Origin: Chiloscyllium plagiosum
Lineage: Eukaryota
NCBI RefSeq assembly: GCF_004010195.1
Contig: NC_057752.1
Span: forward strand, 3,838,726-3,894,799
Direction of reading: 5' to 3'
DNA: 56,074 bases
The position numbers were made by a program, and so were the translations under genes. Positions 1 through 56,074 of this stretch are shown here, in pieces. The notes under the pieces were generated by a model. The model was not told where the DNA came from. It worked only from the letters and a program-made list of their open reading frames with translations, and ran no database searches. How positions within the stretch are numbered: the stretch's first letter is position 1; each line of letters starts with the position of its first letter.

Positions 1-490
1 CTGACCACTTCAACTCCCCCTTCCACTCCACCAAGGACCTGCAGGTCCTGGGCCTCTTCCACCGCTAAATCCTAGCCACCCCACACCTGGAGGAAGAACG
101 CCTCATCTTCCGCCTTGGGACCCTGCAACCATATGGGATCAATGTGGATTTCACCAGTTTCCTCATCTCCCCTCCCCCCCCCCCTCCCCACCTCATCCCA
201 GATCCAACCCTCTAACTTGGCACCGCCCTCTTGAACTGTCTTACCCGTCCATCTTACTTCCCACCTATCTGCTCCACCCTCCCCTCCAACCTATCAACAT
301 CACCCCCCACCTGCATCTACCAACGCCTATCCAGCTCCCTCGCCCTCCCTCCTACTTATCTCTCAGCCCCCTCCACCGCCCCACCCTCCAACATTCCTGA
401 TGAAGGGATTATGGCCGAAACGTCGATTGTCCTGCTCCTCGGATGCTGCCTGATCTCCTGTGCTTTTCTGGCACCACACTTTCGGACTCA
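1..490 (+). mobile_element. Penelope-like retroelement 3' fragment (GIY-YIG C-terminus plus 3' UTR with hammerhead motif), family A
   Basis: Frame from nt 3 reads DHFNSPFHSTKDLQVLGLFHR*ILATPHLEEERLIFRLGTLQPYGINVDF, the typical C-terminal half of a PLE GIY-YIG endonuclease. A C-rich UTR and CTGATGA...GAAACGTC follow. Runs off the window start. Confidence 0.8.
397..424 (+). ncRNA. Minimal hammerhead ribozyme motif (core intact, stem II weakened)
   Basis: CTGATGA-A-GGGATTATGGCC-GAAAC-GTC. Stem II has two mismatches relative to GGGC/GCCC in the sister copies. Confidence 0.6.
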
Positions 491-865
491 ATAAAAGCTC
501 AGCTCAGCACACTGGCATGGGACTGACTGCTGTAAATTTCAAGAATGTGAGGCCATTCACAAATCACCAGATTTACATAAGGCGTCTGTTAAGTGGTTTC
601 TTCATACTGAGTTCCTGAACAAGAGATTTAAATGGGCTGTCATAGGAAGATTTACAAATTGATTCTGCTCATCTGCAGTTTACAGAAACCTTTAGATTTC
701 AGCATTAGACATCTTGACAAAATTATGTATTCTATCAGGACTACATTACACAAACTGTTTGAAACTATTGTTGTTGAATCAGACTCCGAGTTACACCTGG
801 ACCCAGGATTTTCCAGGACTCTGGGTATGATTTATGCACCAGTTAGTCACCCAGTGTAAAGGTTA

Positions 866-1102
866 TTAATTTAAAAAAACTTCAAAGGACGACATCTCTA
901 TAGCACATATCACTACCTCAGGATATTCCAAATCACTTTGCAGCCAATGACTGGTATCGGAAATGAGGCCACTGTTATTAAATAGGAAATGTGGCCCTGA
1001 AAATACACAGCAAATTCCCATAACATGATGATAATCAGAGCATTTTTTAATGGTTCGTTGAGGACTAAATATTTGTGACAGGGGATAACTCCCCTGCTCA
1101 TC
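866..1102 (-). mobile_element. SacSINE1/DeuSINE-like SINE fragment
   Basis: The reverse complement resembles the Deu-domain/3' part (GAGCAGGGGAGTTATCCCC...CATTGGCTGCAAAGTGATTTGG). Confidence 0.55.
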
Positions 1103-1114
1103 CACAAAACACAG

Positions 1115-1560
1115 GTGTCGTGGTAGTGTCATTGGACTGGTCAACTAAAGCCCCAGACTGATATTCTGAGGTGTGATTCCAAATGCCATTGATGAAGATG
1201 GCGACGTTTAAAAAGAATAAAGTCTGGAATTAAAAGGTGACATAATGGTACTATGTATCGCTGTTAATGGTGATAAAACCCCATCTGATTCACTTTTTTT
1301 TAATTGATTCATGAGATCTGGGCAGCGCTGGCTGGCCAGCATTTATTGCCCATCCCTTTGAGAAGGTGGTAGTGAGTTGCCTAATTGAACTGCTGCAGCC
1401 AATGTGCTATAGATAGACCCACCATGCCCTTCAGGAGAGAGTTAAATCCTTTAGGAAAGGAAATCTGGCGTCCCTACCTGGTCAGGCCTAAATGCAACTC
1501 CAGAAATATGGTTGACTCTTAACTGCCCTCTAAAGTTACCTAAAAAGTCACTCAGTTGTA
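1115..1560 (+). mobile_element. tRNA-derived SINE, interrupted by an antisense CR1-tail fragment (~1292-1440)
   Basis: Shares AAAACCCATCTGATTCAC...AAGGAAA..TG.C.TCC.TACCTGGTC.GGCCTA with the copies at 52710-53035 and 23350-23690. Confidence 0.6.
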
Positions 1561-1639
1561 CCAAACTATTCCAAAGGCTTAAAAAAAGGAACAAATCTGG
1601 ATTGACCACCCTACCTCAACCTAACCACAATGACCAGTC

Positions 1640-3130
1640 CTGCAAAGTCCTCCTTACCAACATCTGGGGGCTTGTGTCACAATTGGAAGAGTTGTCTTAC
1701 AGATGAGTCAAGCAACAGCCTGATGTTGTCATATTCACAAAATAACACCTCACAGAACATGCCCCAGGCACCATCATCGCCATCCCTGGATATGTCCTGT
1801 CGCACTAGCAAGACAGGAAGTTGTGGCACAATGGTACACAGTCGGGAGGGAGTTGCCCACTAAGTCCTCAACATTGATTCTGGACCCCATGAAGTCTCAT
1901 GGCAAGGAAACCTCTTGCTGATTATCACATCCCACAACTCCCTCAGCTGACGAATCAGTTCTCCTCTGTGTTGCACAGCACTTGGAGGAAGCGCTGAGAG
2001 TGGCAAGGGTGCAAAATATTCTCTGGGTGGGGAACTTCAATATCCAACACCAAGAGTGGCTTGGCAGCAACATTACTGATCGAGCTGGTTGACTCAGAAG
2101 GGATATATCTGCTACACTGGGTCTGGGGCAGGTGGTGAGAGCCAAGAAGGAAAAATTTATTTGACCTCATCTTGATTAATTAATCTGTTGCAGATCCATC
2201 TATCCACGACAGTATCAGTAGGAGTGACCACTGCACAGTCCTTGTGGAGACCAAGTCCTGCCTTCACATTGAGGATTCCTTCCACCATACTGTGTGGCAC
2301 TATCATCTGCTAAATGAGACGATCTTTGAACAGGAACTGAAGACTGGGCATCCATGAGGCACTGCGGGCCATAAAGAGCAGCAGAATTGTACTCCAGCAC
2401 AACCTGTAACCTCATGGCCTGGCATATCCCCCACTCAATCATTACCATCAAGCTAGGGGGTCAACCCTGGTACAATGGAGAGTGGGGGAGGGCATGCCTG
2501 GAGCAGCATCAGGAATACCTGAAGATAAGATGTCAACCTGGTGAAGTTACCAAACAGGACTACCTGCATGGCAAACAGCATAAGTAGCAAGTGGTAGACA
2601 GAGCTAAGTAATCCCACAACCGATGGATCAGATCCAAGCTGACAATCAATCCTGAATGGTGGTGGATAATTCAAACAATTAATAGGAGGGGGGAGAGGAG
2701 GAGGCTCCATACACATCTGAATCCCCAATGATTGGGGAGCCCAAAGCATCTGTGGAAAAGACCAGGCTAAATTATTTGCATCCGTTCACCCAGAAGTTCC
2801 AAGTGGATGATCCATCCCGGCCTCCTCCAGAGATCCCCAGCATCAAAGATCCAAGTCTTCAACCGATTCAAGTCATTCTACATGATATCAAGAAATAACT
2901 GAAAACTCTGGACACTACAAAAGCTATGGGCTCAACAACATTCCAGCAACAATGCTGAAGACTTGTGCTCCACAATGAGCCATGCCCCTAGGCTGCTTCA
3001 GTGCAGCTACAACACTGGCATCTACCTGATATGTCCTGTCACAAAAAGCAGGACAAATCCAATCTGACTTATTACCAGCCTATCAATCGACACACCGTCC
3101 GTAAAGTGATGGAAGGTGTCATTAAGAGCT
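1640..3130 (+). mobile_element. Decayed CR1-clade LINE ORF2 (AP endonuclease through start of RT)
   Basis: Motifs LLTNIWGLV, ILWVGNFNI and SDH, then YYQPI and KVMEGVI. Many stops and frameshifts. Colinear with the copy at 26935-30295. Confidence 0.8.
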
Positions 3131-3599
3131 GCCTGCATGATAGCGGCAGCCTTGTTGGGAGCTGCTATCATGCTAAACAGTGCAGGCAGCTCATCAGAGA
3201 GTCAGCAAGGTTAGCAGGGCTGGAAGGAGCTGTGCAAAAAAACTGAAAGCTCAGATCTCTCACCAGCTCAAGTAGGCAATTAAAAAAAAAAGTTTTAAGA
3301 TAAATAAACATTATTTGACTGCACGGCAGACTGACAACTGTGCATTTTTGTGTCCCAGACTGTTCAGTTTAGCAGAAATAAAGTTCAAAATTCAACTCTG
3401 AATTGGATAGTGTGGAATAAAGGGTTAATTATAGCACAGAATAGCTTTTCAATAAAACAAACTCAATGGATGAAATTTTCCCACCGTAGTCCCTCTTGGA
3501 ATAACGGGACCACATTTGGATGTGGAACCTAATGCACTGAGTTGTACGCTCAGCTCTTTACCAGACCAAACTAATTGGCATCCTGCCTCCAGGTTTCCT

Positions 3600-3790
3600 G
3601 ATGTTGGCATTCCCTGGCAAAGCATGCCTCCTTGGTCCACTGGAAAAGCGATCTACTTCTAGGAGACTGCACATATCAGCAGCAACTTGCATTGATAGCC
3701 TGGGGCTTCTGAGGCAGTGGTATTGCAGACAATTCAAGAGAGCTGATCCCCTACCTGTAGCCTCTGTGTTGAGGATTTCACCTTCTTCGA
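3600..3790 (-). mobile_element. PIF/Harbinger (HARBI1-like) transposase N-terminal relic
   Basis: ORF 3558..3833(-) contains YHCLRSPRLSMQVAADMCSLLEVDRFSSGPRRHALP, resembling the Harbinger pattern C.RRLRLSR..V..IC..L...L.....HALPV. Confidence 0.6.
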
Positions 3791-4231
3791 GCTGAATCTC
3801 AGTATCCATACCCTCTGCCCTGGGCAGGAACATGCATCTGAGGAAAGGCAGCTGGTATTGCTACTGGAGTTCCTCCTGCTGCTGTTAGAACAGGTCATGG
3901 TGATTTAGCTTTTGTTCAGGCCCCTCAGCAGAGGTGGGAAGTGGAGCTGCTACCATGCTGCAGTGATGGCACGCAACAAGGAGTCACAGCTGTACATGAG
4001 TGAAAATGCTAGACAGGTGAAGCACCTTTCAAAATGTTGGCAACTGCCAAGCATAGAGTCTGTCTGAGAGAAGGAGCAGTTTGAATAGGTGGTCATTTCT
4101 GGTGCCCTTCAGTATCACCTATCAAAGCTTTCCCAGTTCCACTGAAGAAGCTCTTCATGCTGTGCACTTATCTCAGTGACCCTGGCATCAGGTCAGAAAA
4201 CATGGCCCCTGGCTGGGAAATATAGGATGTG

Positions 4232-4342
4232 GATATTTTCTAATCAATCTGTTCAGAGATATTCTGGCACACCTATGGAACAGGTGGGACTTGAACCCAG
4301 GCCTCCTGGGTAGGGAAACCATCACTGTGCCACAAGAACATT
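4232..4342 (-). mobile_element. Short (~110 nt) tRNA-derived SINE
   Basis: B-box-like GGGTTCAAGTCC on minus and A-rich end (GATTAGAAAA). About a dozen related copies in the window. Confidence 0.6.
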
Positions 4343-5269
4343 CAAATCCAGGATTTGTGGTGAAAACAACTCATAATTGCCTTAATCAGCCTCAACGACT
4401 GCTGATTTACTTCATCCAACAGATCCAGCAGTTTCCCACTTGCCTCCAATCTGACACCAGGGAAAACCAGAAACAAGCACAACGGTACGGGATTCCAATC
4501 CAGTATCAATTTGCATGACTTCCCTGCCCCTGCTGACAATGGAAACCATGGCCACAAGGCTGAGGAAATTCCGACTAATGTGTTTGAAAGTGTTCAGCAT
4601 CGAAGAACCTTAGTAAAGCCCGTTTTCTTATTTGTTTTGCTAACAATTGATGTGATGATGTAAATCATATTGAAATTCGCTCGCCAGTTATTTCATTGTG
4701 ACTTAAGAGGTGATCCAGTTCCTTCCCTTCTCTCACATACACCTTTTTCTCCATGAAAACAAAGCCCTCTTAAGCAACAATCATTGGCAGCCGTTAAATA
4801 TTATGTGCCTGACAGAATGTGCAAAGTTGTTGACTATAGACAACAGTATTTGGCCTTAATGTCATATTTGTACCAGCTTTCAGACAACCTGCCAAGCCAA
4901 AGCTTCGGTTATACTCTTAAGAGAAGACCTCTAACAGCAAAAGATGCCATTTCTTAGTGATTAGCAGGAGAGAGTGAGTGGCAGCGAGAGAGAGACAGGA
5001 CACATGCAGCTTTAATCTTCAGAAGACTGCACTGATGTAAATAGTTCTGTTTACTGTTGTTGCTACAGCTGATGGCTAATGGAACCTTTACAGTCCCTAA
5101 CCCTATGCAGCATTTAAAACGCTTTAACATTTTACACAGATTTAGAAACTTGCAGGTTCGGTCACTGAGTCTGTGCTGAGTTAATGTGTCTGAGTGAGGT
5201 TGACAACAGGCCAGTATAATTAACTTTCAATGTTCCTGGGTTAGGCCAATGTGTTCACATAATTCTTTT

Positions 5270-5478
5270 TTTTTTGGGACTTGAACCTCCTTGCTCAGAG
5301 ATCGGGACATTACCATTGCATTACACAAGACCCACAGTGATCCTTTTCTTAAAACTAACCTATTTTTCTAATCAACCTGCACAGAGATGTTATTATGCAC
5401 CTCTGGAGCAAGTGGCACTTGAATCCAGACCTCTCTGTTCAGGAGTAGGGGCACTACCACTGCACCACTAGAGGCCCC
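5270..5478 (-). mobile_element. Tandem pair of the short tRNA-derived SINE
   Basis: Two head-to-tail copies containing ACTTGAA.C...CTCAGAG/TTCAGGAG...CA.TACCA.TGCA. Confidence 0.6.
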
Positions 5479-5523
5479 TTACTCACATGAATTTCAGAGA
5501 CAGACAGGACTAGTTATAGTCAA

Positions 5524-5755
5524 TTTTCACGCAGAGGGTGGTATGTGTATGGAATGAGCTGCCAGAGGAAGTGGTGGAGGCTGGTACAATTACAGCATTT
5601 AAAAGGCATCTGGATGGGTACATGATTAGGAAGGGTTCAGAGGGATATGGGCCAAGTGCTGGCAAATGGGACTAGATTGAGTTGAGATATCTGGTCGGCA
5701 TGGACGAGTTGGACCGAAGGGTCTGTTTCCATGCTGTACACCTCTATGACTCTAA
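5524..5755 (+). mobile_element. CR1-type (HER1-like) LINE 3' end
   Basis: Reads FTQRVVCVWNELPEEVVEAGTITAFKRHLDGY, then a 3' UTR ending CTCTATGACTCTA. Confidence 0.85.
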
Positions 5756-6524
5756 TTAGGCTGCTCACCACCAGGAACAGTGAGCTATTGGCTAACTTGC
5801 AGAAAGCAATTGCCAACCACCGAACTCTCAGAAGCTGGCATCTGGGCAAACAAGTATCAGAAGCCTCAGGAGAAAATTGGTAAGAAAGGGATTTTTTAAA
5901 CTCTTGCACTTGGATCATGCAAACATTAAAACACACTTTATGTTCTGCCATTCTACTTAGCTCAACTTTCAACACCTTGTCTCTTCTGTCTTAATCCATA
6001 AATGATTCATCAGGTTTTGATCCCTTGTTTCAGTTGAGTTACATTTGTAGTTCGGAATAGGAAGCAATTATCAGGATCACACAGTTACTCAGTATCTTGT
6101 TGACTCCTGCTGGAAGCAGATATGTGGGTAAACATGATGGCTCTATTGCAATAGTCTCCTAGATCATAGTAGTATTACTGAAAGATTAGCTGCTTGTATA
6201 AGGCTACTGAGGCCCACTTCTTTCCTGAGAACTGCACCTCCCTACATGAGAAAAAAGGTTCAAGGGGGTAATGTCTCTGCCTTTTAAAGCATTCATCCTG
6301 TCAATATTTAGTGTCTCCTGTCAATGTTCAGCCAGCAGGAAACTCTCCTCCCCGTTTGTTGGGAGGGATCAACCCTCCCACCCCGCCCCCTTCCCCACAC
6401 AGTTTGACCATTCACTATCAGAAAACAGAGAGCTAATAAAACTTTCTAAATGTATGTCAATAGGATCAAGTGATAAAATGTTAAGTACTTCACCTCGTGG
6501 TCTTTTGGGTAGACTCAAGCCCCA

Positions 6525-6640
6525 GGGCTCTTGTGGTGCAATGGTAGTATCGCCAACTCTGAACCAGGAGACATGGGCTCACATCTCACCTGTTTCAGAG
6601 GTATGTCATGGCATTCCTAAACAGATTGATTGGAAAAACA
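6525..6640 (+). mobile_element. Short tRNA-derived SINE
   Basis: GGGCTCTTGTGGTGCAATGGTAG head and AACAGATTGATTGGAAAAA end. Confidence 0.55.
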
Positions 6641-7929
6641 TTGAGCAGTCAAAATCCTTCAACCGTTCTGACACACTGTAAGATACATTTAGATCATGAT
6701 GGCCTCCTTGGTTGAATATACCATCTATACTAAACATCCCAAGGCAAATATGAAATTGGGTAAGGAGAAGATCGTTGGTGTCTGTGGAACTGTTCTCCAG
6801 TAAGGGTCAGAGCCTTCAAGAGGAAGGGGAGTAAACTGGGCAAGCAAAACCATATGCATTATTTCTTCGCCAATTTGCATTGTTCATTTGATGCTGACTT
6901 GGAGGACAAAGCTGGGTTTGTCAGTTCAGTGCCTCATGGAACAGATGCAGCTTAGGAAACCTCTTGGATAGCAGCCACTGACTTCAAATCAGAAGCATTT
7001 CCTCATAAAACAAAGCATTTTGCAGAGTTGACTGTTGCATTTCAGCCAGCCTTCTCTCGATCATTTCCCTCTACTCTTTTCAAACACTGCTCTAATTTCA
7101 TGCTATGAATATTCTACTAAACTGGTTAATTTGGTGTTTAAACAACACAAAATACTTACCTTGTTTTGACAGTGCAGTTCGATGTATTTGCATCAATGGT
7201 TAATGGAAGGGACAAACATCATGCTGCCTTTTGAATGAAGGATAAAATGGGAGTATTGACATAGATACACATTGGATGTATTTTGCTTATTCGGCTCTGG
7301 TGCAAAGTTACACCCAGTGGATTTTAGTTACGCATGGTAGTGGTTGGTTCACATGCTACATTAGAGGAGAGAGTTTATATGGTCATGCTTCTGACTCACT
7401 ATAAATATCTGAAGGCAGACCTCAGAAGGATCATTAATGGGCCACATTCGCTTCCATCGGCAATGTCTGGCCCCATCTGAAACCATTCATCTCTATATCC
7501 ATTATGCTTGAAACTCAATGTCAAGAATTTATTATGCTCCTTCAGACTTTTGGAAACTTCCGCAAGGTTACCTCAAAGTCACTTTTTTCTAATAACCATA
7601 ACCTTCCTTTATGTAGCACCTTTCACAAAATAAATCACTTTAAGGCACTTCATAAGTGATTATCAAATTAAATTTGTTACAAAGGGATATTTCAGTGTGA
7701 ACATGCCCAGTATCCCTACCATTTCTCCCAACTTAGATTCCCGGGACTCAATATCATTGTTGTTCTTTATTGCATCCTCAATGCCAATAATATCCTAAGA
7801 TCATCTGAATTATTCATGCTTTGTAGAATATCCATTGCACTACCCCGATATGATTCAGCTTGAGAACAATACAGATCTTTATAGGCAATAGTCTGAGTAA
7901 CCTTCCCTGAGTTTGTCACAGACAGTCAG

Positions 7930-8200
7930 GCTTACGTTTCAAGGTGAGAGGAGAGAGATTGAAAAAAGATAAGAGGCAAACTTTTTACACAGAGGCTGGT
8001 TCACATGTGGAATGAACTTCCTGAGGAAGTAGTAGACGTGCGCACAATTACAACATTCAAAAGATATTTAGATCAGTACATGAACAGGAAGGGTTTAGAG
8101 GGAGCAGGCAGTGGGACTAGTTTAGTTTGGGATTAGGGTCGGCCTGGACTGGTTGGACTGAAGGGTCTGTTTCCGTGCTGTATGATTCTGTGACTCCATC
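7930..8200 (+). mobile_element. CR1-type LINE 3' end
   Basis: WNELPEEVV motif and GAAGGGTCTGTTTCCGTGCTGTATGATTCTGTGACTC tail. Confidence 0.8.
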
Positions 8201-8469
8201 GCTGAGACTCAGTGACACAACAATTCATGTTGCAAAAGCCGAGGGAGTGGAAATGATGTGACAAACCAAAAAGAAGTGTCCAGCTGAGGTGTAAATAGCT
8301 GAATAGCAATCATCCAAATGCAGAGTAAAAGAATTAAAATGGTTTTTCAAGGTGTGAATGTGCATCGCATCAAGGATGGTTCCTGGCTGAGCCAAAATGA
8401 CCTGAATCTGGAAGTCCCAAACTTGAACCTACCATTTTCACCAGGGCAGGGAAGGAGGACAGGTTGCAT

Positions 8470-8580
8470 TTTGCACAAAGAAAAACAGAAATGGCTGGAA
8501 AAGCTCAGCAGGTCTGGCAGCACAACTGTGGAGAGGAATCAGAGTTAATGTTTCGGGTTGAGTGACCCTTCCACAAAACT
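8470..8580 (-). mobile_element. PLE-derived 3' UTR fragment with degenerate hammerhead motif
   Basis: Minus strand reads ...GGAAGGGTCACTCAACCCGAAACATTAAC...CTGCCAGACCTGCTGAGCTTTTCCAGC. Confidence 0.5.
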
Positions 8581-9324
8581 GCTTTGCAGTTTAGGGAAGC
8601 AATTGCACACGTTAAAGTACAGCTGCCTTCAGTCCGATCCAACCTAATGGGATGTCCTAAACATTAATTGCGTCCTTTCGACCTTTCAGGAGAAAGTCTA
8701 AAGTTTGTAGAGTCCTTTGAAGACATAGGGTACCTCTTGGATAGGTCCAGGGACACCTATAAGAAAGGCAGATTGCCATTTGGGAGAGGTCAAGTATCCT
8801 TTGGATTTGTTAAAAGTATAAAATCATCAGAACAGTCAAGTTCATAAGCACTATTAAGCTGTCAAGGCATTTAAATGTACTAGTCTTTAAATTTTTGAAA
8901 ATAACAGTGAAAACATATATCAGTGCTTTTTACTTCATGCTATCTGTTGACATAAAGGTTAGGGCAATCATTAAAGAATTTGTGCTGCGAGACTGATTTC
9001 ACAGTGGTATGTTGATTGGTTCACCGTTTGAGTGACAGCTTCCAATGCTTATGAGCTTTTTGAACTGGGCTATGAATACAAATATTTGTTTGAGAGGGGA
9101 TTGAGTGGTTGAAGGGTGTTAAATGTAGTGACTGGGATCTTGTCGATGAGAGTGCATTTTATTTTAATGCAGTGAATCTATCAATAAACACTTGGACCAT
9201 TATCTTGTTTCATCTCAGCACAGGTCCTGAGGTCTGCCCATGGTGGATATTGGGTGAGTTGGCAAGGAGGGCAAAGGTTGGTGGGTGGGCCAATGATTAG
9301 CATGAGTTGGTACTCAACTGGTAC

Positions 9325-9422
9325 TTCCTGATGAAGGGCTCATGCCCAAAACGTCGATCCTCCTGCTCCTCGGATACTGCCTGACTGGCTGTGCTTTTCC
9401 AGTGCCACCCTTTTTGACTCTA
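9325..9422 (+). mobile_element. PLE family A 3' UTR fragment with hammerhead motif (GAAA mutated to AAAA)
   Basis: CTGATGAAGGGCTCATGCCCAAAACGTC at 9328-9355, followed by the same tail as 425-490. Confidence 0.7.
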
Positions 9423-9914
9423 AGCTGGCACAGGGCCTACAAAGGACCATTGTGATGAGTAGAATGGCAGAGGTTGGCACATGAAGTATGAAGAGTTAAG
9501 GGGGTTGGGTAGAAGGGAATGAGGTGGCATGGGTTGACATGGAAATTTGGAGAGCTGTTTTTGTTCTTTTCTTTTCCAATACTGGGACAAGAGCACCAAG
9601 ATGGCCTTTCCCACAGCCAGCCCCCACAGATGGCAGCTGATCTGGCTGCTCCTTTTGGGGAGGGGGGTGTGATCTGATTCCTACGAGCCCCTGCCCACCC
9701 AAACAAAAACCGAAATCTCTGGGGTACTTTCTCCCAGATTGGGTTTTCGGATCTGGGAACTTACCTGAATCTGCGCTGCCAACTCAGGGTTTGAAAATGC
9801 AAGCTAAAATGTTTTCATATTCTGTTCCAATTTGATTGGGGAGATGAATTTTATTTTTGTACAGTAGTTTTATTTCTTCACTTGTTGCCTGTGGGACTCT
9901 GTTCCATTAAGCAC

Positions 9915-10705: not shown

Positions 10706-10764
10706 ATCCTGTGGTGTCTCAACCAAGTGAATATTTTTTGTATAAACGATTACTGGTATGATTA

Positions 10765-14535: not shown

Positions 14536-14599
14536 TTTCCACTCAAGAACCCTCAAGTGGAAAGTGTTCTCTTCGCCAGCTGGGGAAAAGGGATGTCTT

Positions 14600-15272: not shown

Positions 15273-15995
15273 GAGGTTGTAAGTTTGTTCGCTGAGCTGG
15301 AAGGTTTGCTCTCAGACGTTTCATCACCATGCTGGGTAACATCATCAGTGAGCCTCTGTTGAAGCACTGGTGTTCTGTCCTGCTTGCTACTTATGTGTCT
15401 TGGTCTGTTCGGGTGGGTGATCCCCACCCCAGTTTTTTCTCTCAGAAGTTGGTAAATGGGGTCCAAATCAATGTGTTTGTTGATGGAGTTCCGATTCGAA
15501 TATGTAAATGACACCTTTGTCATCACAAAACGGAACAAATTAGAAGAAACCCACAAACACATAAACAACATCCTTACTGGTATAAACTTCACCAAAGAGG
15601 AAGAGAACAACTAGCCACCAAAATACAAGACCCGCTTTCACTAGTATCCTTACACACAGATGACGATGGACACCACTTCGACTGGCACAGCACATCCACC
15701 CTGGGACAGGCTAAACAGAGACATGCACGGGAATTCCTAGAAGCCTGGCATTCAAACCAGTACTCCATCAACAAATGCATTGATTTGGACCCATTTACTA
15801 ACCTCTCAGAAAACAAACCGGACGTGATGTCACCCACCCTAACAGACAGGTAAATAGAAAACAGGACAGAACACCAGCACTTCACGGAGGCTCACTGATA
15901 ATGTTACCTAGCATGGTGACAAAATGTCTGAGAACAAACCCACCAGCTCAGCAAGCAAACTTACAACCTGAACTACAAATCTCCTCAAAAACCGC
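15273..15995 (+). mobile_element. Penelope-like element family B with inverted left arm and 12-bp TSD
   Basis: 15273-~15500 is the reverse complement of the 3' end at ~15750-15970. RT fragment YVNDTFVITKRNKLEETHKHINNILTGINFTKEE and GIY-YIG tail AREFLEAWHS. Direct repeat ATTCTCAGACTC at 15261-15272 and 15996-16007. Confidence 0.85.
15315..15348 (-). ncRNA. Minimal hammerhead ribozyme motif (core intact)
   Basis: ctca-CTGATGA-T-GTTACC-cagcat-GGTGAT-GAAAC-GTC-tgag: stem I ctca/tgag, stem II GTTACC/GGTGAT, palindromic stem III ACGT, GUC triplet. Confidence 0.75.
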
Positions 15996-19540: not shown

Positions 19541-20203
19541 TGAGAAGGTTTGTAGCTCAGGTTGAGGTTCTGGATGTAGGTTTGCTTGCTGAGCTGGAAG
19601 ATTCATTTTCACACGTTTTGGCATCATACTAGGTAACATCTTCAGCCCACAAGCCCACCATCAGCTAACACCCACACAGCAGCTCGTGAATTTGAAAGAC
19701 CCTATACAGACAACAAGCAAAACTAATGCCATTTACAAAATACCGTGCAAGAACTGTAACAAACATTGGAAAAACAGGCAGAAAACTAGCCACCAGGATA
19801 CATGAACACCAACTAGCCACAAAACGACATGACCCACTCTCACTAGTCTCCTTACCTACAGTTGAGGAAGGACACCACTTCGACTGGGACAACACATCCA
19901 TCCTAGGACAAGCCAAACAGAGACTCGCACGAGAATTCATAGAAGCATGGCATTCCAACCGGAACATACTCAACAAACAGATTGACCTGGACCCGATTTA
20001 CCACCCCCTAAGAAAAAGAACAGGAAATGACATCACCACAGGAAACAACATCACAAACCCAAAGAAACCCAAACATATAAATAGAAAGCAGGAATCATCA
20101 GCAGTGCTTCATCCGGAGGCTCACTGAAGATGTTACCCTAGTACGGTGACGAAATGTCTGGAAATGAACCTTCCAACTTAGCGAGCAAACCTACAACCTG
20201 TAT
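19541..20203 (+). mobile_element. Penelope-like element family B (GIY-YIG) with short inverted arm and 11-bp TSD
   Basis: NAIYKIPCKNCNKH then (frameshift) IGKTGRKLATRIHEHQLATKRHD...AREFIEAWHS. 19541-19646 is an inverted 3' end. ATAAAGAGTTT at 19530-19540 and 20204-20214. Confidence 0.85.
20124..20158 (+). ncRNA. Minimal hammerhead ribozyme motif (near intact)
   Basis: tca-CTGAAGA-T-GTTACC-ctagtac-GGTGAC-GAAAT-GTC-tgg. Confidence 0.65.
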
Positions 20204-21556
20204 ATAAAGAGTTTGGATAATCTCAACCCAGCTCTTGCTGCATACAAATTCAAAGCACAAAACTGTCTATAGCCCCATATTAAATAACAATGCAATATTT
20301 CATTCCTTCTGTGAGCACACTGGTTATTAGGAGCAACTTCCCACATGTACTGCAGTGCATCCAAATAATTTAATCCGAAACATAATGTTAAACTATTTAA
20401 AACGATGCAGTAAAATGACAAACAAATACTGCAAAGGAAGTGAAAATACCCTTCGCTCATAGAGAATATGTTGAATGAGACTGTTTTCCCATCCTTGGTC
20501 TTTACATATATCTTGCATTCCCACCTTTACAATCTGTGTTTTCACTGACATAAACTCAGAAAGTTTGACTCAGCACCCAGTTCAAACCAAACTGCAAGAA
20601 TTCTACTGAGTTACTTATTCTACAGCCAATCACCCACTGCCAATAGTCAGAGGTGGTTGGCAAAATGTAGCTGATTGGTTTGTGCATTTGTGACCAGTCA
20701 TGGATGATACAGTGAGAAGTCTTTGAATTGTTGAAAGGGCAGGTGGTCTCTCTCTCTCTCTCTCCCCCTGTTAATCACCTATTACCAATAATTACCAATT
20801 GTCAGAGTAGTAAACACCTATCGCTTTCCAATCTTGCAAAAGCAGGCAAGTCTCCCTGAGCTGACTGTCTCTGAAAATAACTATTGTTGCTGTGCAGAGA
20901 AAGCATTTTTTTTAACATTATCATCTTGAGGTAGATCTGATGCTCAGGTATCCTTTGTCAGTCCATAGTATGAATGGTTGTGCTGCATGAAAGTGTTAGG
21001 TTCACTCGTGAATTTCCAATGGAGCTAGCTAGCATTACTCAGTTACTTTTCCCACCCCAACACCTTCAGTCATTATTCACAAGTAACGCATCATATTTGG
21101 AGAGAAGCTTTATTTACAGAGAGATTCATTTTGACCAATGCCACCTCTTTCTTGAGATGTGAGCCTCTTAGTGGTGAGGTCGTTGTTTCAATGTTTCAGC
21201 AATAGTAAATCCTACCAATTAAACCACCCTCAAATGAGAGCTGACAGATGTTATGAGAAACAATGGCATGGGAGGTTTTCCCTGCATTCAAGATTAAAAT
21301 GACTTCAGCCAAAGAGTGTCAATCAGGACCTATCCAATAGCAAAACAGAGGTGACTTAATTTGAAGGCTTTACACTGCTGAAGAGCTGGCATTAATGAAT
21401 CACTGTTGGCTTGAGCCGAAATCAAGATGCCTGCCTATTATCTAAACTTTCAGTTATTAAGCATGATTTGGAGATGCCGGTGTTGGACAGGGGTGTATAA
21501 AGTTAAAAATCACACAACACCAGGTTATAGTCCAACAGGTTTACTTGGAAGCACAC

Positions 21557-21586
21557 TAGCTTTTCGGAGTGACGCTCCTTCATCAG
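21557..21586 (-). ncRNA. Hammerhead motif, family C (one extra A after GAAA)
   Basis: cac-CTGATGA-A-GGAG-cgtca-CTCC-GAAAAG-CTA-gtg. Confidence 0.55.
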
Positions 21587-21612
21587 GTGATAGTGGAGGG
21601 CTCCACAATCAC

Positions 21613-21641
21613 CTGATGAAGAAGTGACACTCCGAAAGCTA
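21613..21641 (+). ncRNA. Hammerhead motif, family C (CUA triplet)
   Basis: cac-CTGATGA-A-GAAG-tgaca-CTCC-GAAAG-CTA-gtg: stem I cac/gtg, palindromic stem III AGCT, one stem II mismatch. Confidence 0.6.
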
Positions 21642-21771
21642 GTGTGCTTCCAATTAAACCTGTTGGACTATAACCTGGTGTTGTGTGATTTTTAACTTCA
21701 GTTATTAAGACATAGCAGGAAATCCTAACAGTACAGAGGCATCAACTATGTCACTGGCTGCTGAGAATCCT

Positions 21772-22212
21772 ATTCTGGATCAGTGGTGCTGGAAGAGCAC
21801 AGCAGTTCAGGCAGCATCAAAGGAGCTTTGAAATCGACGTTTCGGGCAAAAGCCCTTCATCAGGAATAAAGGCAGTGAGCCTGAAGCGTGGAGAGATAAG
21901 CTAGAGGAGGGTGGGGGTGGGGAGAAAGTAGCATAGAGTACAATGGGTGAGTGGGGGAGGAGATGAAGGGGATAGGTCAGGAAGGAGAGGGCAGAGTGGA
22001 TAGGTGGAAAAGGAGCTAGGCAGGTAGGACAAGTCTGGACAAGTCTGGACAAGTCATGGGGACAGTGCTGAGCTGGAAGTTTAGAACTAGGGTGAGGTGG
22101 GGGAAGGGGAAATGAGGAAACTGTTGAAGTCCACATTGATGCCCTGGGGTTGAAGTGTTCCGAGGTGGAAGATGAGGCGTTCTTCCTCCAGGTGTCTGGC
22201 GGTGAAGGAGGC
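21772..22212 (-). mobile_element. Penelope-like element family A 3' fragment
   Basis: Minus frame RHLEEERLIFHLGTLQPQGINVDFNSFLISP. Same layout as 1-490. Confidence 0.8.
21836..21863 (-). ncRNA. Minimal hammerhead ribozyme motif (best-preserved family A copy)
   Basis: CTGATGA-A-GGGC-tttt-GCCC-GAAAC-GTC: perfect core and perfect 4-bp stem II. Confidence 0.75.
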
Positions 22213-27885: not shown

Positions 27886-28552
27886 TACATCCCATAAAAT
27901 CTCTTGGCCTCAGGTCAAACGTGGGCAAGGAAAGCTCCCTCTCCCTCACATACTGCCCCCGCCCCCACCCCCAGCATTGGCTGATGAATCAGTACTCTTC
28001 CATGTTTAACATCATTTGGAGCAAGCATTGAGGGTGGCCAAGGTAAAGGATGTACTCTGGGTGGGAGATTTCAATGTCCACTCCAAATGTAGCTTGATAG
28101 CACCATTACAGATCGAGCTGGTTGGGTCCGAAAGGACATAGGTGCTAGACTGGGTCTGTGGCAGTTGGTAAGGGAACCAGCTAGAGGGGAAAAATATACT
28201 CTGACTCATCACCACCTATCTACCTGTCACATGTATATCCATCCATGACCGCACTGGCAAGAGTGACCATTACATAAGCCTTGTGAAGATGAAGTCACAC
28301 CTTCACACTGAGGAGATTTTCCATTGTGTTAGATGGCACTCCACAGTGCTAAATGGTGCAGACTATGAACACCTCTATCAACTCAAAACTGGAGATCCAT
28401 GAGTCACTGTGGGCCATCAGCAACAGTAGAATTGTATTCAATCACAGGCTGTAATGTCATGGCCCAGCATATCTTCCTCTTTACTATTACCATCAAACCA
28501 GGAGATCGACTCTGGTTCGATGGAGAGTGCAAGAGGGCATACCAGGAGCAGC

Positions 28553-28751
28553 GTCGAGAATGTGGTGCTGGAAAAGCACATCAGGTCAGGTAGCATCCGA
28601 GGAGCAGGAGAATCGATGTTCATCAGAAGGGCTTATGCCCGAAACGTCGATTCTCCTGCTCCTCGGATGCTACCTGACCTGCTGTACTTTTCCAGCACCA
28701 CACTCTCAGCTCTGATCTCCAGCATCTGCATGGCTCACTTTTTCCAAGTTG
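28553..28751. mobile_element. Palindromic PLE family A mini-element with 14-bp TSD
   Basis: Inverted arms ~28556-28620 and ~28643-28708. ATACCAGGAGCAGC at 28539-28552 and 28752-28765. The hammerhead remnant GAAGGGCTTATGCCCGAAACGTC starts at the inversion junction. Confidence 0.8.
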
Positions 28752-44672: not shown

Positions 44673-44689
44673 TGGCTAGATATTCATCA

Positions 44690-45296: not shown

Positions 45297-45485
45297 GGCA
45301 GCACAGTGGCTCAGTGGTTAGTAATACTGCCTCACAGGGCCAAGGGACCCGGACATGATTCCAGCCTTGGACAACTGTCTGCCTGGAGTTTGCACAGGTG
45401 ACAAAGGAGCAGCGCGCCAAAAGCTTGCGATTTCAAATAAACCTGTTGGACTATAACCTGGTGTTGTGTGATTTCTGACTTTGCA
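45297..45485 (+). mobile_element. Truncated HE1 SINE head followed by a family C PLE-related fragment
   Basis: GGCAGCACAGTGGCTCAGTGGTTAG head. From ~45398 a decayed hammerhead and AAACCTGTTGGACTATAACCTGGTGTTGTGTGATTT as in 21657-21692. Confidence 0.65.
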
Positions 45486-46690
45486 TAAATGGAGATGTAG
45501 CCTCCAACTAGTAGCTGATTAGTTTGTGGACTAGTGACCAGTTATTGATGACAAAGGCCCTCCACCTGCCAACAACTAATATGATAGGTTCTCAGGTAGT
45601 TGAACAGCCTGGGCCTGTGAACTAGATCGGATCTATGCAAGCTCAGGAGCTATTTTTGTTCTCCACAGGAAAACTCACTTTGAGCCTGAATAAATCAGTT
45701 TATTTTTCCTTCAGAAGTTGCTGCAAGTAGTGGCTTTTAGTTAAAAGAGTCTCTGACTTATTATCAGTGAAACAGTCATTCTGTGAATCCTGTAAACTAG
45801 TGGAAGCATCCAGAGAAGGAAGACTGAGAAACAGCATTCTTATTAGGACAAGAATTATCTCAGCAGATCCTGTGAATGGGGACTGCTGAACAGCTTTCCC
45901 AGATTTTCCTCTACCCATAACATCCTTCTTTTTCCCCTGCATGTGGTGACAGGGAGCTTATAAGGGGATTAGAGTTCTAACCAATAGACTTTTATGTCAA
46001 CGGTTCATAATTGTTTCACCAGAGTCTATTTACAAGTAATAACTAGTCATTCTTGTTAAGTACAGTAACCTGGTCTGTGCTTTCTGTCAACTTGGATCTG
46101 AAAGACAACTAGATTGGGGAATTCTATGTAGTTTAAAATCCTTAACTTTTGTGACAACTCCAGGAACAGTGGGGCTTAATTTCCTGCGCACCACCCTCGT
46201 GAGCTATGACTGACTCAACAAGGTTCTGTCTCACATTTTTATTCAAGGCAAAAACAGATATCTGATTCCTTACATAGATATGTCATAGTTTGTGCGAAGA
46301 TTTGTAGCTCGGGTGCTGGTTGTTGTGGTTCTGTTCGCCGAGCTGGAAGTTTTTGTTGCAAACGTTTCGTCCCCTGGCTAGGCGACATCATTAGTGCTTG
46401 GGAGCCTCCTGCGAAGCGCTTCTTTGATGTTTCCTCCGGTGTTTATAGTGGTCTGTCCCTGCCGCTTCCGGTTGTCAGTTTCAGCTGTCCGCTGTAGTGG
46501 TTGGTATATTGGGTCCAGGTCGATGTGTTTGTTGATGGAGTTTGTGGATGAATGCCATGTCTCTAGGAATTCCCTGGCTGTTCTCTGTCTGGCTTGCCCT
46601 ATGATAGTAGTGTTGTCCCAGTCGAATTCATGTTGCCTGTCCTATATAGTGTTTAGTGCAGTCCTTGCATAGTATTTTGTACACTACATT

Positions 46691-47492
46691 NNNNNNNNNN
46701 NNNNNNNNNNNNNNNNNNNNNNNNNNNNNNNNNNNNNNNNNNNNNNNNNNNNNNNNNNNNNNNNNNNNNNNNNNNNNNNNNNNNNNNNNNNNNNNNNNNN
46801 NNNNNNNNNNNNNNNNNNNNNNNNNNNNNNNNNNNNNNNNNNNNNNNNNNNNNNNNNNNNNNNNNNNNNNNNNNNNNNNNNNNNNNNNNNNNNNNNNNNN
46901 NNNNNNNNNNNNNNNNNNNNNNNNNNNNNNNNNNNNNNNNNNNNNNNNNNNNNNNNNNNNNNNNNNNNNNNNNNNNNNNNNNNNNNNNNNNNNNNNNNNN
47001 NNNNNNNNNNNNNNNNNNNNNNNNNNNNNNNNNNNNNNNNNNNNNNNNNNNNNNNNNNNNNNNNNNNNNNNNNNNNNNNNNNNNNNNNNNNNNNNNNNNN
47101 NNNNNNNNNNNNNNNNNNNNNNNNNNNNNNNNNNNNNNNNNNNNNNNNNNNNNNNNNNNNNNNNNNNNNNNNNNNNNNNNNNNNNNNNNNNNNNNNNNNN
47201 NNNNNNNNNNNNNNNNNNNNNNNNNNNNNNNNNNNNNNNNNNNNNNNNNNNNNNNNNNNNNNNNNNNNNNNNNNNNNNNNNNNNNNNNNNNNNNNNNNNN
47301 NNNNNNNNNNNNNNNNNNNNNNNNNNNNNNNNNNNNNNNNNNNNNNNNNNNNNNNNNNNNNNNNNNNNNNNNNNNNNNNNNNNNNNNNNNNNNNNNNNNN
47401 NNNNNNNNNNNNNNNNNNNNNNNNNNNNNNNNNNNNNNNNNNNNNNNNNNNNNNNNNNNNNNNNNNNNNNNNNNNNNNNNNNNNNNNNNNNN
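46691..47492. other. Assembly gap (802 N)
   Basis: Run of n characters. Confidence 1.
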
Positions 47493-47984
47493 ACTAATGT
47501 AGTGTACAAAATACTATGCAAGGACTGCACAAAACACTATATAGGACAAACAGGAAGACAGCTAACAATCCGCATACATGAACATCAACTAGCCACGAAA
47601 CGACACGACCAGCTATCCTTAGTAGCCACACACGCAGACAACAAGCAACATGAATATAACTGGGACAACACTACTATCATAGGGCAAGCCAGACAGAACA
47701 GCCAGGGCAGCTATCCTTTGTAGCCACACACGCAGACAACAAGCAACATGAATTCGACTGGGACAACACTACTATCATAGGGCAAGCCAGACAGAGAACA
47801 GCCAGGGAATTCCTAGAGGCATGGCATTCATCCACAAACTCCATCAACAAACACATCGACCTGGACCCAATATACCAACCACTACAGCGGACAGCTGAGA
47901 CTGACAACCGGAAGCAGCAGGGACAGACCACTATAAACACCGGAGGAAACATCAAAGAAGCGCTTCGCAGGAGGCTCCCAAGCA

Positions 47985-48018
47985 CTGATGATGTCGCCTA
48001 GCCAGGGGATGAAACGTT
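47985..48018 (+). ncRNA. Minimal hammerhead ribozyme motif (core intact, GUU triplet)
   Basis: gca-CTGATGA-T-GTCGCC-tagcca-GGGGAT-GAAAC-GTT-tgc. The mirror copy at 46361-46394(-) has CTAATGA. Confidence 0.7.
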
Positions 48019-49764
48019 TGCAACAAAAACTTCCAGCTCGGCGAACAGAACCACAACATAGATATGTCATACCATTCATTTATCCCATGTCACATTGGTT
48101 ACCCTGAAGAGTATAACCAATGGTGAGAATCCTTGGTGTAAGCCATTGACTGTGTTCCTCTAAAATAAAGACACTTCGACACATTGCAGGCAATTTTAAC
48201 CAAACCAATTCATTGGGATAGTGATGGAATCAGAGACAATGCTGCTTTTACAACCCACTTGGTTTTCGTTTTTCTTGATAAAGCTGGAATAAGTCACAAA
48301 TATAACAGATAGCTATCAACTCATGTGTCATTTATTCTCTCCTGCTTTCCACCTTATCCTGTCTCTTCGCATTCCCTGCCTCTGTACTTGTCATCAACTT
48401 GAAATGTTAACTTTTCTCTTGCCACCAATGCCACCTGGCCTGCTCAGAGTGTTTCCAGTATTTTCTGTTGTTATGATTCCAGCTGATGTTAATATTGGAC
48501 ACATCAGATCCCAGAGTGAAATCTGGCTTGTTAGATAATGAAACTTTTTTTTTTGGTATGGAGGTCAGTTACTGAACACATTCACAAGAGGCTGCCAATG
48601 TACTTTGAGCACAAAGCATAAAATGCGTATTAAATCAGAAGAAGATGAACTATATTACACAAGACAAAACAAAAGTTTGTTTAATATCTGCAGAACTATT
48701 CAAACTCAGCTCATCACTTCTAGGTCGTAAAACCTCATAAAGCAGGCACCACTCACAGAACGAAACTACACATGTCTTCCCCTTCTTAACATGCAAAATA
48801 TAAAGTCTAAATTCAACTTAAAGTTATACATCAATCTTAATGTTTTTACATCAAGGAGATGTTGTATTATTTTGGTCCCAAACTTAAGGAATATGAGTTT
48901 GATAAATGCAAGGCTTCATTCTGCATCACAAATAATTTAAAGGGTCATATTGTGTGGAGTGTAAATGTGGTGTTCCACATACTCCTGTGAATTTTGAATC
49001 AAGTGAGTTAGGTTAAAATTACCCCCATGGCGCAAAATAAAGTAATACAAGGTATATTGCAAACCCTGAGCATGCTACACATGCTCAACCATGCTTTAAA
49101 TCGTAAATTGTGGGGAAAGTGAATTATTAAACTGTAATCTGCTGGTGAACACAAATAGAGCTAGGAGATGGTCTGAATCAAAACAATGAAAAATATTTCA
49201 ATAGTATTGCATCATTGTCTGCTATAAATTCTGAATAAATGAACATGTTGTGCAAGCACAGTGAATGCATGTATAAAACCCTCCCTCGCTCATCGTGTAC
49301 TTCCTCATTATATAGAATTCCTGTAACCATGCTATTCCTGACTCAGGCATAAATCATTTCAAGTTAATGGTTTTCACTGCACAGCACACCAAGTGCTGTC
49401 AAACTGCTGCCTAATTTCATTCAGAGGCAGCAAAATACAGTGAATGCCTAATCTTTTACACAATCATATACTTTAGTAAAGGACCACATTTGGAATAATG
49501 GCCTTGTACTACAATAAAGCCTTTACAAGGCTATATGGCTGAACAGACTTAGGCAAAAGGAAAGATGAGGTCAGCTGGCCGAGATGCATTTCCTACTTTT
49601 ATGCAGAGTTTGTGGAAATTCCAAAGGGAACAGTGACCATCAGTCCACATTGTTTAACACCAGTTTGCCATTGTGCTGAGACACAAAGGTCCCTCCGGGT
49701 TCAACTTATAATAAGACTCCTAAGGAAATGGGTTCGCAACCATGATGGAAAATCACAAGTTTCT

Positions 49765-54404: not shown

Positions 54405-54545
54405 TCCCTCTCCCATTTATCTCTCCACCCCTGAGGCTCCCAGCCTCATTCCTGATGAAGGGCTCTGGCCCAAAACACCGATTTTCTTGCACCTCGGATG
54501 CTGCCTGACCTGCTGTGCTTTTCCAGCAACACACTCTCAACTCTT
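54405..54545 (+). mobile_element. PLE family A 3' UTR fragment with decayed hammerhead
   Basis: CTGATGAAGGGCTCTGGCCCAAAACACC at ~54452-54479 plus the family tail. Confidence 0.65.
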
Positions 54546-54599
54546 AGGGTGATTTTCCATCTTATATGGAAAAGCCATATACACACTGTGAATACAAGG

Positions 54600-55150
54600 T
54601 CAAAGGCGAGAGATCCTAAGTAACTCACCTCCTGTTTCCCCGAAACCTATCTACCATCCACAAGGCACAAGTCAAGAGTGTGATGGGATACAGTCCACTG
54701 ACCTGGATGGATGCAGATCCAACAATACTCAAGAAGCTTGACAGCACCCAGGGCAAACCAGCCTATCTGATTGACACCTCATCAATCACCTTCAACACTC
54801 ACTCCCCTCATCACCAATACACAGTAGCAGCAGTGTGTACCATCTACAAGATGCACTGCAGTAATTCACCAAGATTCCTTCAACAGCATCTTCCAAGCTG
54901 CAGTTCCCAGCACCTACCAGATCAAGAGCAGCAAAAGCAGGCAAACACCACCCCCTGCAGGTTCCCCTCCAAGCCACTCACCATCCTGACTTGGAAATAT
55001 CTCACTATCCCTTCACTGTCACTGGGTCAAAATCGTGTAACTCCCTCTATAACAGCATGGTGAGTATATCATACGAAACAAAGTTCAAGAAGACAGCTCA
55101 TTGTCACCTTCTCAAAGACAATTAGAGATGGGCAATAATTACTGGGCCAG
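54600..55150 (+). mobile_element. CR1-clade LINE 3' end
   Basis: STIHKAQVKSVMGYSPLTWM...YKMHCSNSPR and tail CAATTAGAGATGGGCAATAA. Confidence 0.8.
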
Positions 55151-55647
55151 AGCCTTGAAGGGAAGGGACAAACCCATGACAAAACAATTAATTAAAAGGG
55201 CTGTCACAAGTACAAGGGGCTGAATAGCTTTAGGAGTGCTATCATTTTTGATTCTATGAATCTCCGTGATTCCCTCTTGCCTGTTTGGCATATGAAAGAA
55301 CTCGGCACTCTTTGAAACGGCTGCATTGTAAATTGGAAATTTGTCTAACTTCACCTGCAGGCAATAGTCCCTGTCAACACAGCACGTGAGCAGCAGAACC
55401 CACACTGCACGCCTCTCATCTGCTGCTCCCAACCTCACTGTGGCTGGAACCTTCGGCAGAGTTTGGAATAAATTAACAGCACAGGTGTACAAGTCTAATT
55501 ATAACCCATTACCCCTGAATCATTATCTGCTACAGAGATCTTCATAAAATTAATTTTGTATTTGCTTTCAAGCCCTACAGCCACATAGCTGTGTATAATT
55601 TGATTTTACTTGGTTTCAAAATAAAAACGAGCATTCATTCATTTCAG

Positions 55648-55854
55648 GAGAAAGTGAGGACTGCAGATGCTGGAGATCAGAGTCGAGAGTGAGGCGCTGG
55701 AAAAGCACAGCAGGTCAGGCAGCATCCGAGGAGCAGGAAAATCGACATTCGGGCATAAGCCATTCCTGATGAAGGGCTTATGCCCAAAATGTCGATTCTC
55801 CTGCTCCTCAGCTGCTGCCTGACCTGCTGTGCTTTTCCAGCGCCTCACTCTCGG
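55648..55854. mobile_element. Palindromic PLE family A mini-element with 14-bp TSD
   Basis: Inverted arms ~55684-55760 and ~55775-55853. TTCATTCATTTCAG at 55634-55647 and 55855-55868. Decayed hammerhead at 55766-55793. Confidence 0.8.
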
Positions 55855-55868
55855 TTCATTCATTTCAG

Positions 55869-56074
55869 GAGAAAGTGAGGACTGCAGATGCTGGGGATCA
55901 GAGCTTAAAAATGTGTTGCTGGAAAAGCGCAGCAGGTCAGGCAGCATCAAAGGAGGAGAATCGAAGTTTCAGGCATAAGCCCTTCTTCAGGAATGAGGAG
56001 GGTGTGCCAAGCAGGCTAAGGTAAAAGGTAGGGAGGAGGGATTTGGGGGAGGGGCGTTGGGAATGCGATAGGTG
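55869..56074 (-). mobile_element. PLE family A 3' end inserted at the same target site; runs off the window
   Basis: Starts with the same GAGAAAGTGAGGACTGCAGATGCTGG tail. Hammerhead variant CTGAAGA-A-GGGC-ttat-GCCT-GAAAC-TTC at 55963-55990(-). Confidence 0.75.

Follow-up and report, generated by a model that had tools for sequence, protein, structure and literature searches.

Minimal hammerhead motifs of four families, probably terminal pieces of Penelope-like elements, in a 56-kb stretch of the Chiloscyllium plagiosum genome

The stretch of DNA analysed here, which we call the window, comprises 56,074 nucleotides of the genome of Chiloscyllium plagiosum (assembly GCF_004010195.1, contig NC_057752.1, positions 3,838,726 to 3,894,799). 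It is dotted with short repeated pieces that carry the motif of a minimal hammerhead ribozyme (min-HHR) and that probably derive from the 3' ends of Penelope-like elements (PLEs), at a density of about one hammerhead-bearing stub per 3.4 kb. An earlier reading of the letters without database searches (the sequence-only reading) had named 17 such sites. By inspecting the sequence, we found the motif at all 17 of them. The stem sequences and the pairs of stem I read as quoted there, and so do the palindromes and the cleavage triplets. We also identified an eighteenth, partial copy at 55734-55774(-), which belongs to family A as defined below.

Scanning the two strands of the window with a strict descriptor, in which CTGANGA is followed by 0 to 1 nt, a stem II with 4 or more base pairs, and GAAA, we obtained five matches, compared with a mean of 0.195 and a maximum of two in 200 Markov-1 shuffles. 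Two covariance models were trained solely on copies from outside the window: R1 on 16 copies of families A, D, B and B2, and R2 on six copies of family C, which was modelled separately because a MAFFT alignment of all families together displaced it by one column. R1 recovers 13 window sites with E ≤ 0.0032, and R2 recovers 21547-21594(-) and 21605-21651(+) with E < 1e-14 and 45394-45436(+) with E = 0.011. Altogether, these models retrieve 16 of the 17 named sites, and homology retrieves all 17. The site near 19612(-) gives no R1 match even at E ≤ 10 and is detected by BLAST to family B alone (77% over 74 nt, E 1.2e-10). Regarding the Rfam hammerhead models, with which the sequence-only reading had proposed to check its sites, they give no match in the window at the gathering score, nor is there one among the 20 weak matches at E ≤ 10. 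Such models presuppose full loops or a helix III that is closed. Weak matches to Rfam microRNA models at 28584-28680, 21565-21634 and 55811-55948 were discarded, as they correspond to head-to-head palindromes.

The families were surveyed by BLAST within the window and by applying the descriptor to a sample of 635,074 non-N bases, made up of the window and of 600 kb taken from four further contigs. The scan returned 49 strict matches, 47 of them in four families, A to D; the two orphans are about the chance rate. Where three families had been proposed, we thus count four, the copy near 8550 being a member of family D, and family B includes a subfamily, B2. Family A has the stem II GGGC/GCCC, helix III ACGU and a predicted cut after GUC; family B has GUUACC/GGUGAC and ACGU, with GUCRCC/GGGGAC and a purine-purine mismatch in B2; family C has GGAG(C)/(G)CUCC, AGCU and a predicted cut after CUA; and family D has GGGUC/GACCY, ACGU and a predicted cut after GUU. 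All of them share one layout, consisting of CUGANGA, one additional base, a G-C-closed stem II, GAAA and a palindrome without a loop, either ACGU or AGCU. The core C3 U4 G5 A6 N7 G8 A9 ... G12 A13 A14, the pair A15.1-U16.1 and H17 are present in intact members of all four families. The additional base between A9 and stem II is found in 49 of 49 strict matches, 29 of which also have a canonical helix III and H17.

We aligned 16 copies and compared the pairing of their stems with that of shuffled alignments. In this alignment 79.5% of stem cells are paired, in comparison with 64.0% in shuffles (none of the 500 pairs as well), and 29 cells are doubly changed, in comparison with 12.4, figures to be read with the caveat that the rows were picked by a descriptor requiring stem II pairing. 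Covariation scores 0.480 in the alignment; the shuffles give 0.244, with none of the 500 reaching the observed value, and sliding the partners gives no more than 0.260. When the partner is slid by 1 to 3 columns, pairing falls to 17-48%. Six of the 11 pairs are changed on both sides, and in helix I, which lies outside the selection descriptor, this applies to three of the four pairs. Helix III (15.2-16.2) is palindromic and 93.8% paired, and the closing pair 10.1-11.1 is G-C in 10 and G-U in six of the 16 rows. These results support covariation of stems I and II between families, as the sequence-only reading had claimed for min-HHRs of the PLE type. The published hallmarks of min-HHRs are compensatory changes among families, a base between 9 and 10.1, the pair G10.1-C11.1 and a palindromic 15.2-16.2 (PMC4209133), and all four are found in the families described here.

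The likeness to the min-HHRs of PMC4209133 extends to the CUGANGA...GAAA core with its unpaired base at A9/10.1, the short helix I (2-4 bp), the loop-less palindromic helix III, the many families per genome with compensatory changes and the prevalence of solo motifs from truncated PLEs among the copies. Helix II measures 4 bp in A and 5 bp in D, and it is longer in B, at 6-7 bp; in family C it has 5 bp in relatives and is 4 bp long or mismatched in two window copies. The purine-purine mismatch or bulge in helix II of B2 recalls the variant of D. virilis (PMC4209133). A loop-less palindromic helix III implies that these motifs would act as dimers. Cofolding of six window copies produced only generic extended duplexes, whose ddG values range from -2.9 to -8.6 kcal/mol, together with a rival pairing between the CUGAUGA box and ACGUC, a result that speaks neither for nor against a ribozyme dimer.

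A Pfam search for GIY-YIG frames in the genome yielded 14,403 first-look candidates; 150 of these were scored, and 47 proved to match. We examined 20 GIY-YIG loci for linked stubs. In 11 of them R1 places a hammerhead on the same strand as the GIY-YIG motif and 50-750 nt downstream of it, and in 13 a family A or B stub or tail is found downstream by BLAST, two of these being a tail only. From the density of R1 matches (99 with at least 21.4 bits in 600 kb), chance alone would give about 1.2 of 20 (P = 5e-9). A 403-aa GIY-YIG frame (locus L023) aligns to residues 503-791 of a 792-aa homologue, P0001, which carries both RVT_1 and GIY-YIG (E 1.2e-15, 26% identity). The relation to PLEs, which had been put forward from the letters of the window, is borne out by this linkage.

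According to these results, we read the window motifs as 3'-terminal pieces of PLEs bearing a min-HHR that is predicted to cleave its own element RNA only as a dimer or with the help of protein, and we give this reading a probability of about 0.88. The window copies themselves are relics and form no working ribozyme set. Several observations weigh against the PLE reading. Seven of the 20 GIY-YIG loci have no downstream stub, two of these loci ending early. The reverse transcriptase (RT) region of the local PLE copies that we examined consists of N, and the combination of RT and GIY-YIG is seen only through P0001. The window contains no PLE coding frame: among its 49 frames of at least 100 aa, Pfam finds only a weak RVT_1 at 29793-30095. 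The motifs are not recognised by the Rfam hammerhead models, the sharp 5' edge of the insertions 4 nt ahead of the core is unexplained by simple random truncation, and RNA reads (poly(A) single-cell data, about 2% sampled) span the predicted cut sites without a pile-up of ends.

The coordinates and the state of each window copy are collected in Table 1. Only one of the 18 copies is fully intact, at 21836-21863(-), and it is the sole one of the six that had been singled out as best to be fully canonical; the defects of the other five are given in Table 1. Four copies differ by a single change outside the invariant letters, namely 15315-15348(-), 47985-48018(+), 20124-20158(+) and 21613-21641(+), and three are doubtful, namely 397-424(+), 21586(-) and 55990(-). 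The remaining 10 are dead, with at least one invariant core letter lost, which in six of them is G12>A. Counted by letters, seven of the 18 copies keep all the invariant ones, an eighth has a 1-nt insertion, and the C11.1-G12 CpG is damaged in nine. There are six head-to-head pairs in the window. The intact copy ends at reference position 145 of family A, a 3' end common to 10 other copies, and the right arm of the family C palindrome has AATTAAA in its tail, a variant of the AATAAA signal of its relatives. An 802-base N run (46691-47492) lies between the 98% identical inverted arms of B2.

Table 1. Hammerhead-bearing pieces in the window, with the state of the motif and the match by which each was recovered (R1 and R2, covariance models)
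Feature	Coordinates	Strand	State of the motif	Match
Family A stub, hammerhead 397-424	389..477	+	Core letters intact, stem II broken (GGGA/GGCC), 2 bp left	R1 E 1.2e-09; BLAST 393-477
Family D remnant	8537..8584	-	CUGANGA box lost, G16.2>A; intact D relatives at loci L026 and L032	R1 E 0.0032
Family A stub	9320..9408	+	G12>A (CpG decay)	R1 E 4e-08; BLAST 9325-9408
Family B piece, hammerhead 15315-15348 preceded by about 150 nt; left arm of head-to-head pair	15274..15496	-	Sole defect C11.1>U	R1 E 2.4e-08
Family B piece; right arm of pair with 15274..15496	15762..15969	+	G8>A, G12>A, C15.2>U	R1 E 4.9e-05
Family B remnant; left arm of head-to-head pair	19572..19645	-	Stem II broken, G12>A	BLAST only, E 1.2e-10
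Family B piece, hammerhead 20124-20158	19957..20199	+	Sole defect C15.2>U	R1 E 1.4e-09
Family C stub; left palindrome arm	21500..21598	-	One additional A after GAAA	R2 E 7.8e-16
Family C stub, hammerhead 21613-21641; right palindrome arm	21600..21698	+	One stem II mismatch	R2 E 5.3e-15
Family A stub, long tail form, hammerhead 21836-21863	21759..21871	-	Only fully canonical window copy	R1 E 6.3e-12
Family A head-to-head palindrome	28546..28717	.	Right arm 28618-28701(+) with CUGAUGA box replaced by its reverse complement; left arm tail only	R1 E 1.4e-06
Family C remnant	45394..45482	+	Core box lost, G12>A	R2 E 0.011; BLAST 45404-45482
Subfamily B2 piece; left arm of 98% inverted pair around N run	46321..46640	-	G5>A	R1 E 1.4e-05
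Subfamily B2 piece, hammerhead 47985-48018	47739..48058	+	C11.1>U and the subfamily-typical stem II purine-purine mismatch	R1 E 2.6e-07
Family A copy, 36 nt further upstream	54417..54532	+	G12>A, stem III lost	R1 E 6.9e-06
Family A head-to-head pair	55693..55844	.	(-) arm 55693-55774 truncated inside hammerhead; (+) arm 55758-55844 with G12>A	R1 E 2.3 (-) and 5.1e-10 (+)
Family A stub	55913..55998	-	C11.1>U, G16.2>U	R1 E 3e-11

Strictly intact copies of family A number 20 of 97 in the 635 kb sample. For a measure of conservation, only the distal 27 nt of the tail served to find copies of family A (79 copies, 69 of them full length), and the remaining parts were then measured. Divergence from the majority base is 0.059 at the 10 non-CpG core positions, 0.083 at the seven non-CpG positions of stem II, and about 0.05 at the non-polymorphic positions of the proximal tail (0.113 over all 25). 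The core is therefore no better kept than its flanks, which indicates that individual copies decay neutrally. CpG positions diverge by 0.16-0.28, whatever their role, and those created by the motif itself (C11.1-G12, C15.2-G16.2 and C17-G1.1) decay fastest. Subfamilies differ, with a minor letter above 25%, at N7, at a single position of loop II and at five positions of the tail; these sites include none of the 17 non-CpG core and stem II positions and seven of the 30 others (Fisher P = 0.039). Together with the invariance of the core across families A to D, this points to a constraint that acts only on the propagating lineages. The sequence-only reading had held that a core no more conserved than its flanks, together with stems that fail to covary, would speak against it; within family A the core is indeed no better kept, but between families it is invariant and the stems covary.

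By collecting the end points of the BLAST matches, we observed two preferred 3' ends in each family, 11-36 nt apart: 121-122 (62 matches) and 145 (10) in family A, 223 (8) and 234-235 (9) in family B, and 124-133 (19) and 160-165 (18), that is about 128 and 164, in family C. In agreement with this, an optional tail and a pair of adjacent start sites of reverse transcription have been described for PLEs (PMC3846280, PMC11167929). At the other end, family A insertions are chiefly 85-nt stubs, and 47 of the 97 tail-detected copies start at reference positions 37-42, which is 4 to 0 nt before CUGANGA. A single one of the 97 starts exactly at the cut site, so that cleaved RNA is not a common template, as reported for PAc, the Poseidon element of Anolis carolinensis (PMC11167929). 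Pairs of family A copies within 200 nt of each other are head-to-head in 19 of 20 cases, the other one being tail-to-tail and none tandem (P = 6e-11); within 1500 nt, five of 35 pairs are tandem on the same strand. The head-to-head junctions lie at or inside the hammerhead, and the spacing of the cut sites clusters at 45-52 nt and 66-75 nt. Inverted head-to-head pseudo-long terminal repeats (pLTRs) with palindromic junctions are a described trait of PLEs (PMC3846280), and PAc cuts and extends both target strands (PMC11167929).

The insertions are truncated at the 5' side, most commonly about 4 nt before CUGANGA, and going by published work on PLEs they could arise as follows. The reverse transcriptase would start inside the tail and copy towards the hammerhead. 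Both cut target strands could prime, which would give head-to-head pairs, and the ribozyme would act weakly on PLE transcripts. We also considered a bolder model, which we deem improbable, in which the min-HHR is the symmetric joint of a two-ended insertion: two antiparallel template RNAs would be held together via the palindromic helix III and each copied from one cut strand, the cDNAs meeting at the ribozyme, with catalysis secondary to dimerisation. Such a joint would explain the head-to-head bias, the junctions at or inside the hammerhead and the single stubs that stop 4 nt before the core.

Regarding abundance in the genome, three narrow patterns gave 18,219 exact intact matches for family A (N7 = U, then GA), 14,834 for family C and 918 for family B, and the reversed-pattern control gave 0 in each case. 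These numbers lie far above the ~4,000-9,000 copies described in coelacanth and Xenopus (PMC4209133). In window 15000-24000, the A, B and C repeats are also covered by contigs that bear the label of another organism, with at least 92% likeness and very high summed depth, which indicates that the families are common to at least one related species.

The RNA data at hand were raw poly(A) single-cell reads with the same species label, of which about 2% was read, and are poorly suited to a test of cleavage. In window 15000-24000, the unique parts have zero RNA depth and coverage falls on repeats only, on both strands. Of the reads aligned there, 96% continue into unlike sequence and hence come from other copies, embedded in other transcripts. 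We also followed locus L018, a PLE end with an intact family A hammerhead, where depth over the stub reaches 165 + 208. In neither of these two regions did these sampled reads show a pile-up of RNA ends at the predicted cut sites, at depths of ~100-370, and reads cross the cut sites. Though a weak test, this speaks against an efficient cleavage of poly(A) RNA at steady state. In Anolis, likewise, no read starts or stops at the hammerhead site of the PLE (PMC11167929), and published min-HHRs cleave poorly even as dimers (PMC4209133). At L018, 63 RNA reads join position 1344, in the PLE frame region, to the opposite-strand end of the A tail (1820-1827); other copies or transcripts must therefore contain this inverted junction. 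Within the family C palindrome (21500-21698), 148 reads have non-templated A runs after 21673 and 157 have T runs before 21528, ~15 nt past the AATAAA-like signal of each C tail; family C tails thus seem to be used as polyadenylation sites.

One could argue that the resemblance to hammerheads is a matter of chance in AT-rich repeats, as the silence of the curated Rfam models might suggest. This is already refuted by our controls, and we grant it practically no probability: strict matches in the window exceed those in shuffles (5 against 0.195), reversed patterns return nothing where the true ones return 918 to 18,219, orphans make up two of 49 strict matches, and covariation lies above both the shuffled and the slid controls. 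A more serious possibility, which we still hold to be rather unlikely, is that the 85-130 nt stubs form a separate non-autonomous family, SINE-like (short interspersed element) or retrozyme-like, with a short master RNA of its own mobilised in trans by PLE enzymes. The tight 5' boundary of family A is in keeping with it, as is the fact that stubs far outnumber coding pieces. It also gains from locus L003, where two 100% identical 95-nt A stubs lie 406 nt apart on the same strand (G000:C1:3867400-3869800), from loci L001 and L002, with same-strand A pairs 2.0-2.1 kb apart and visible frames that have no Pfam match, and from a preprint that argues for a derivation of animal retrozymes from PLE pLTRs (10.64898/2026.07.22.740005). 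Against this, 11-13 of the 20 GIY-YIG loci have this very stub sequence immediately behind the frame, the boundaries are continuous, with some copies reaching further upstream and all window B copies having ~150 nt of upstream body, and tandem same-strand pairs are rare at both distances. A separate family would in any case be compatible with the PLE reading. We rejected the A pairs of L001 and L002, ~2 kb apart, as full elements, given that their visible frames lack a Pfam match and the interval is partly N. The L001 and L002 intervals are weakly homologous to each other and, with L003, are possible non-autonomous units bounded by direct stubs.

It is also conceivable, if improbable in our judgement, that the motif is kept for a non-catalytic task in transposition, as a dimerisation or junction module or a binding site for protein, with cleavage being incidental. 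The position of the head-to-head junctions and their clustered spacing speak for this, and so do the reports (PMC11167929) that catalytic hammerhead mutants of PAc insert normally, that both target strands are cut and extended and that the protein is predicted to be a dimer. On the other hand, it is exactly the catalytic letters that are invariant across A to D, while N7, loop II and the stem sequences vary, which is the pattern expected for catalysis, and PAc RNA cleaves with the protein present (PMC11167929). Finally, the sequence-only reading had proposed a very large reservoir of ribozymes whose intact dispersed copies could cleave host pre-mRNAs. The size of the population stands: stubs recur about every 3.4 kb and exact intact motifs run into the tens of thousands, and the family repeats do appear in RNA reads on both strands. 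As an active reservoir, however, we regard it as very improbable, and cleavage of host pre-mRNA finds no support. Few copies are intact, whether in the window (1/18) or among the sampled A copies (20/97), and a loop-less stem III needs a partner on the same strand, whereas the close partners lie on the opposite strand in 19 of 20 pairs and would form a hairpin and no ribozyme dimer. Moreover, reads cross the cut sites and pile up at none of them at the depths given above, which agrees with the poor cleavage by min-HHRs even as dimers and with the Anolis reads cited above.

The kind of element, a PLE with a min-HHR, is already known, and it is the scale that stands out. PAc (PMC11167929) and the Penelope families of Adineta vaga (PMC3846280) also have a hammerhead at the junction of pLTR and open reading frame, two nearby internal RT start sites with an optional ~30-40 bp tail (here, 3' ends 11-36 nt apart), inverted head-to-head pLTRs with palindromic junctions and no RNA reads that end at the hammerhead. 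They differ in the tails after the cut site, which are shorter here (~53 nt in A, 29 or 40 nt in B), and in the insertions, which here are mostly extreme 5' truncations ending at the edge of the hammerhead. Non-LTR (long terminal repeat) retrozymes and the Sm-alpha-type SINEs of Schistosoma are likewise short and non-coding, with a type I hammerhead that needs a neighbour for helix III, and a PLE origin has been proposed for them in the preprint (10.64898/2026.07.22.740005). Retrozymes, in contrast, come as tandem arrays with canonical loop-loop hammerheads and circular RNA, whereas the motif here is minimal and tandem pairs are rare (0/20 within 200 nt, 5/35 within 1500 nt). In the literature that we searched, we found no description of these families for a cartilaginous-fish-like genome. 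The same preprint sampled one chondrichthyan for tandem retrozymes, and its supplements may list related families.

For the known association of PLEs and min-HHRs, these results show the extent of an expansion in one vertebrate-sized genome, with a stub every 3.4 kb or so and tens of thousands of letter-perfect motifs. Most copies are nonetheless dead, because the conserved junctions of the motif are CpGs, the first to decay. In annotation, it is appropriate to mask such stubs as ends of PLEs instead of calling them ribozyme genes, and the Rfam models will overlook them. Models of how PLEs integrate are usefully constrained by the strong head-to-head bias and by the fixed 5' edge.

Some further features of the window and the sample deserve mention. 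Runs of N lie beside or inside PLE pieces at loci L001, L002, L007, L010, L019 and L023 and across the 600 kb sample. At window 29520-31517 there is a tail-to-tail inverted pair of ~2 kb, with arms ~80-88% complementary and the weak RVT_1 match at 29793-30095(+); this is a different retroelement, without a hammerhead. Other high-copy repeats adjoin the stubs at 18913-20116 and 22525-23126 and show heavy read and contig depth.

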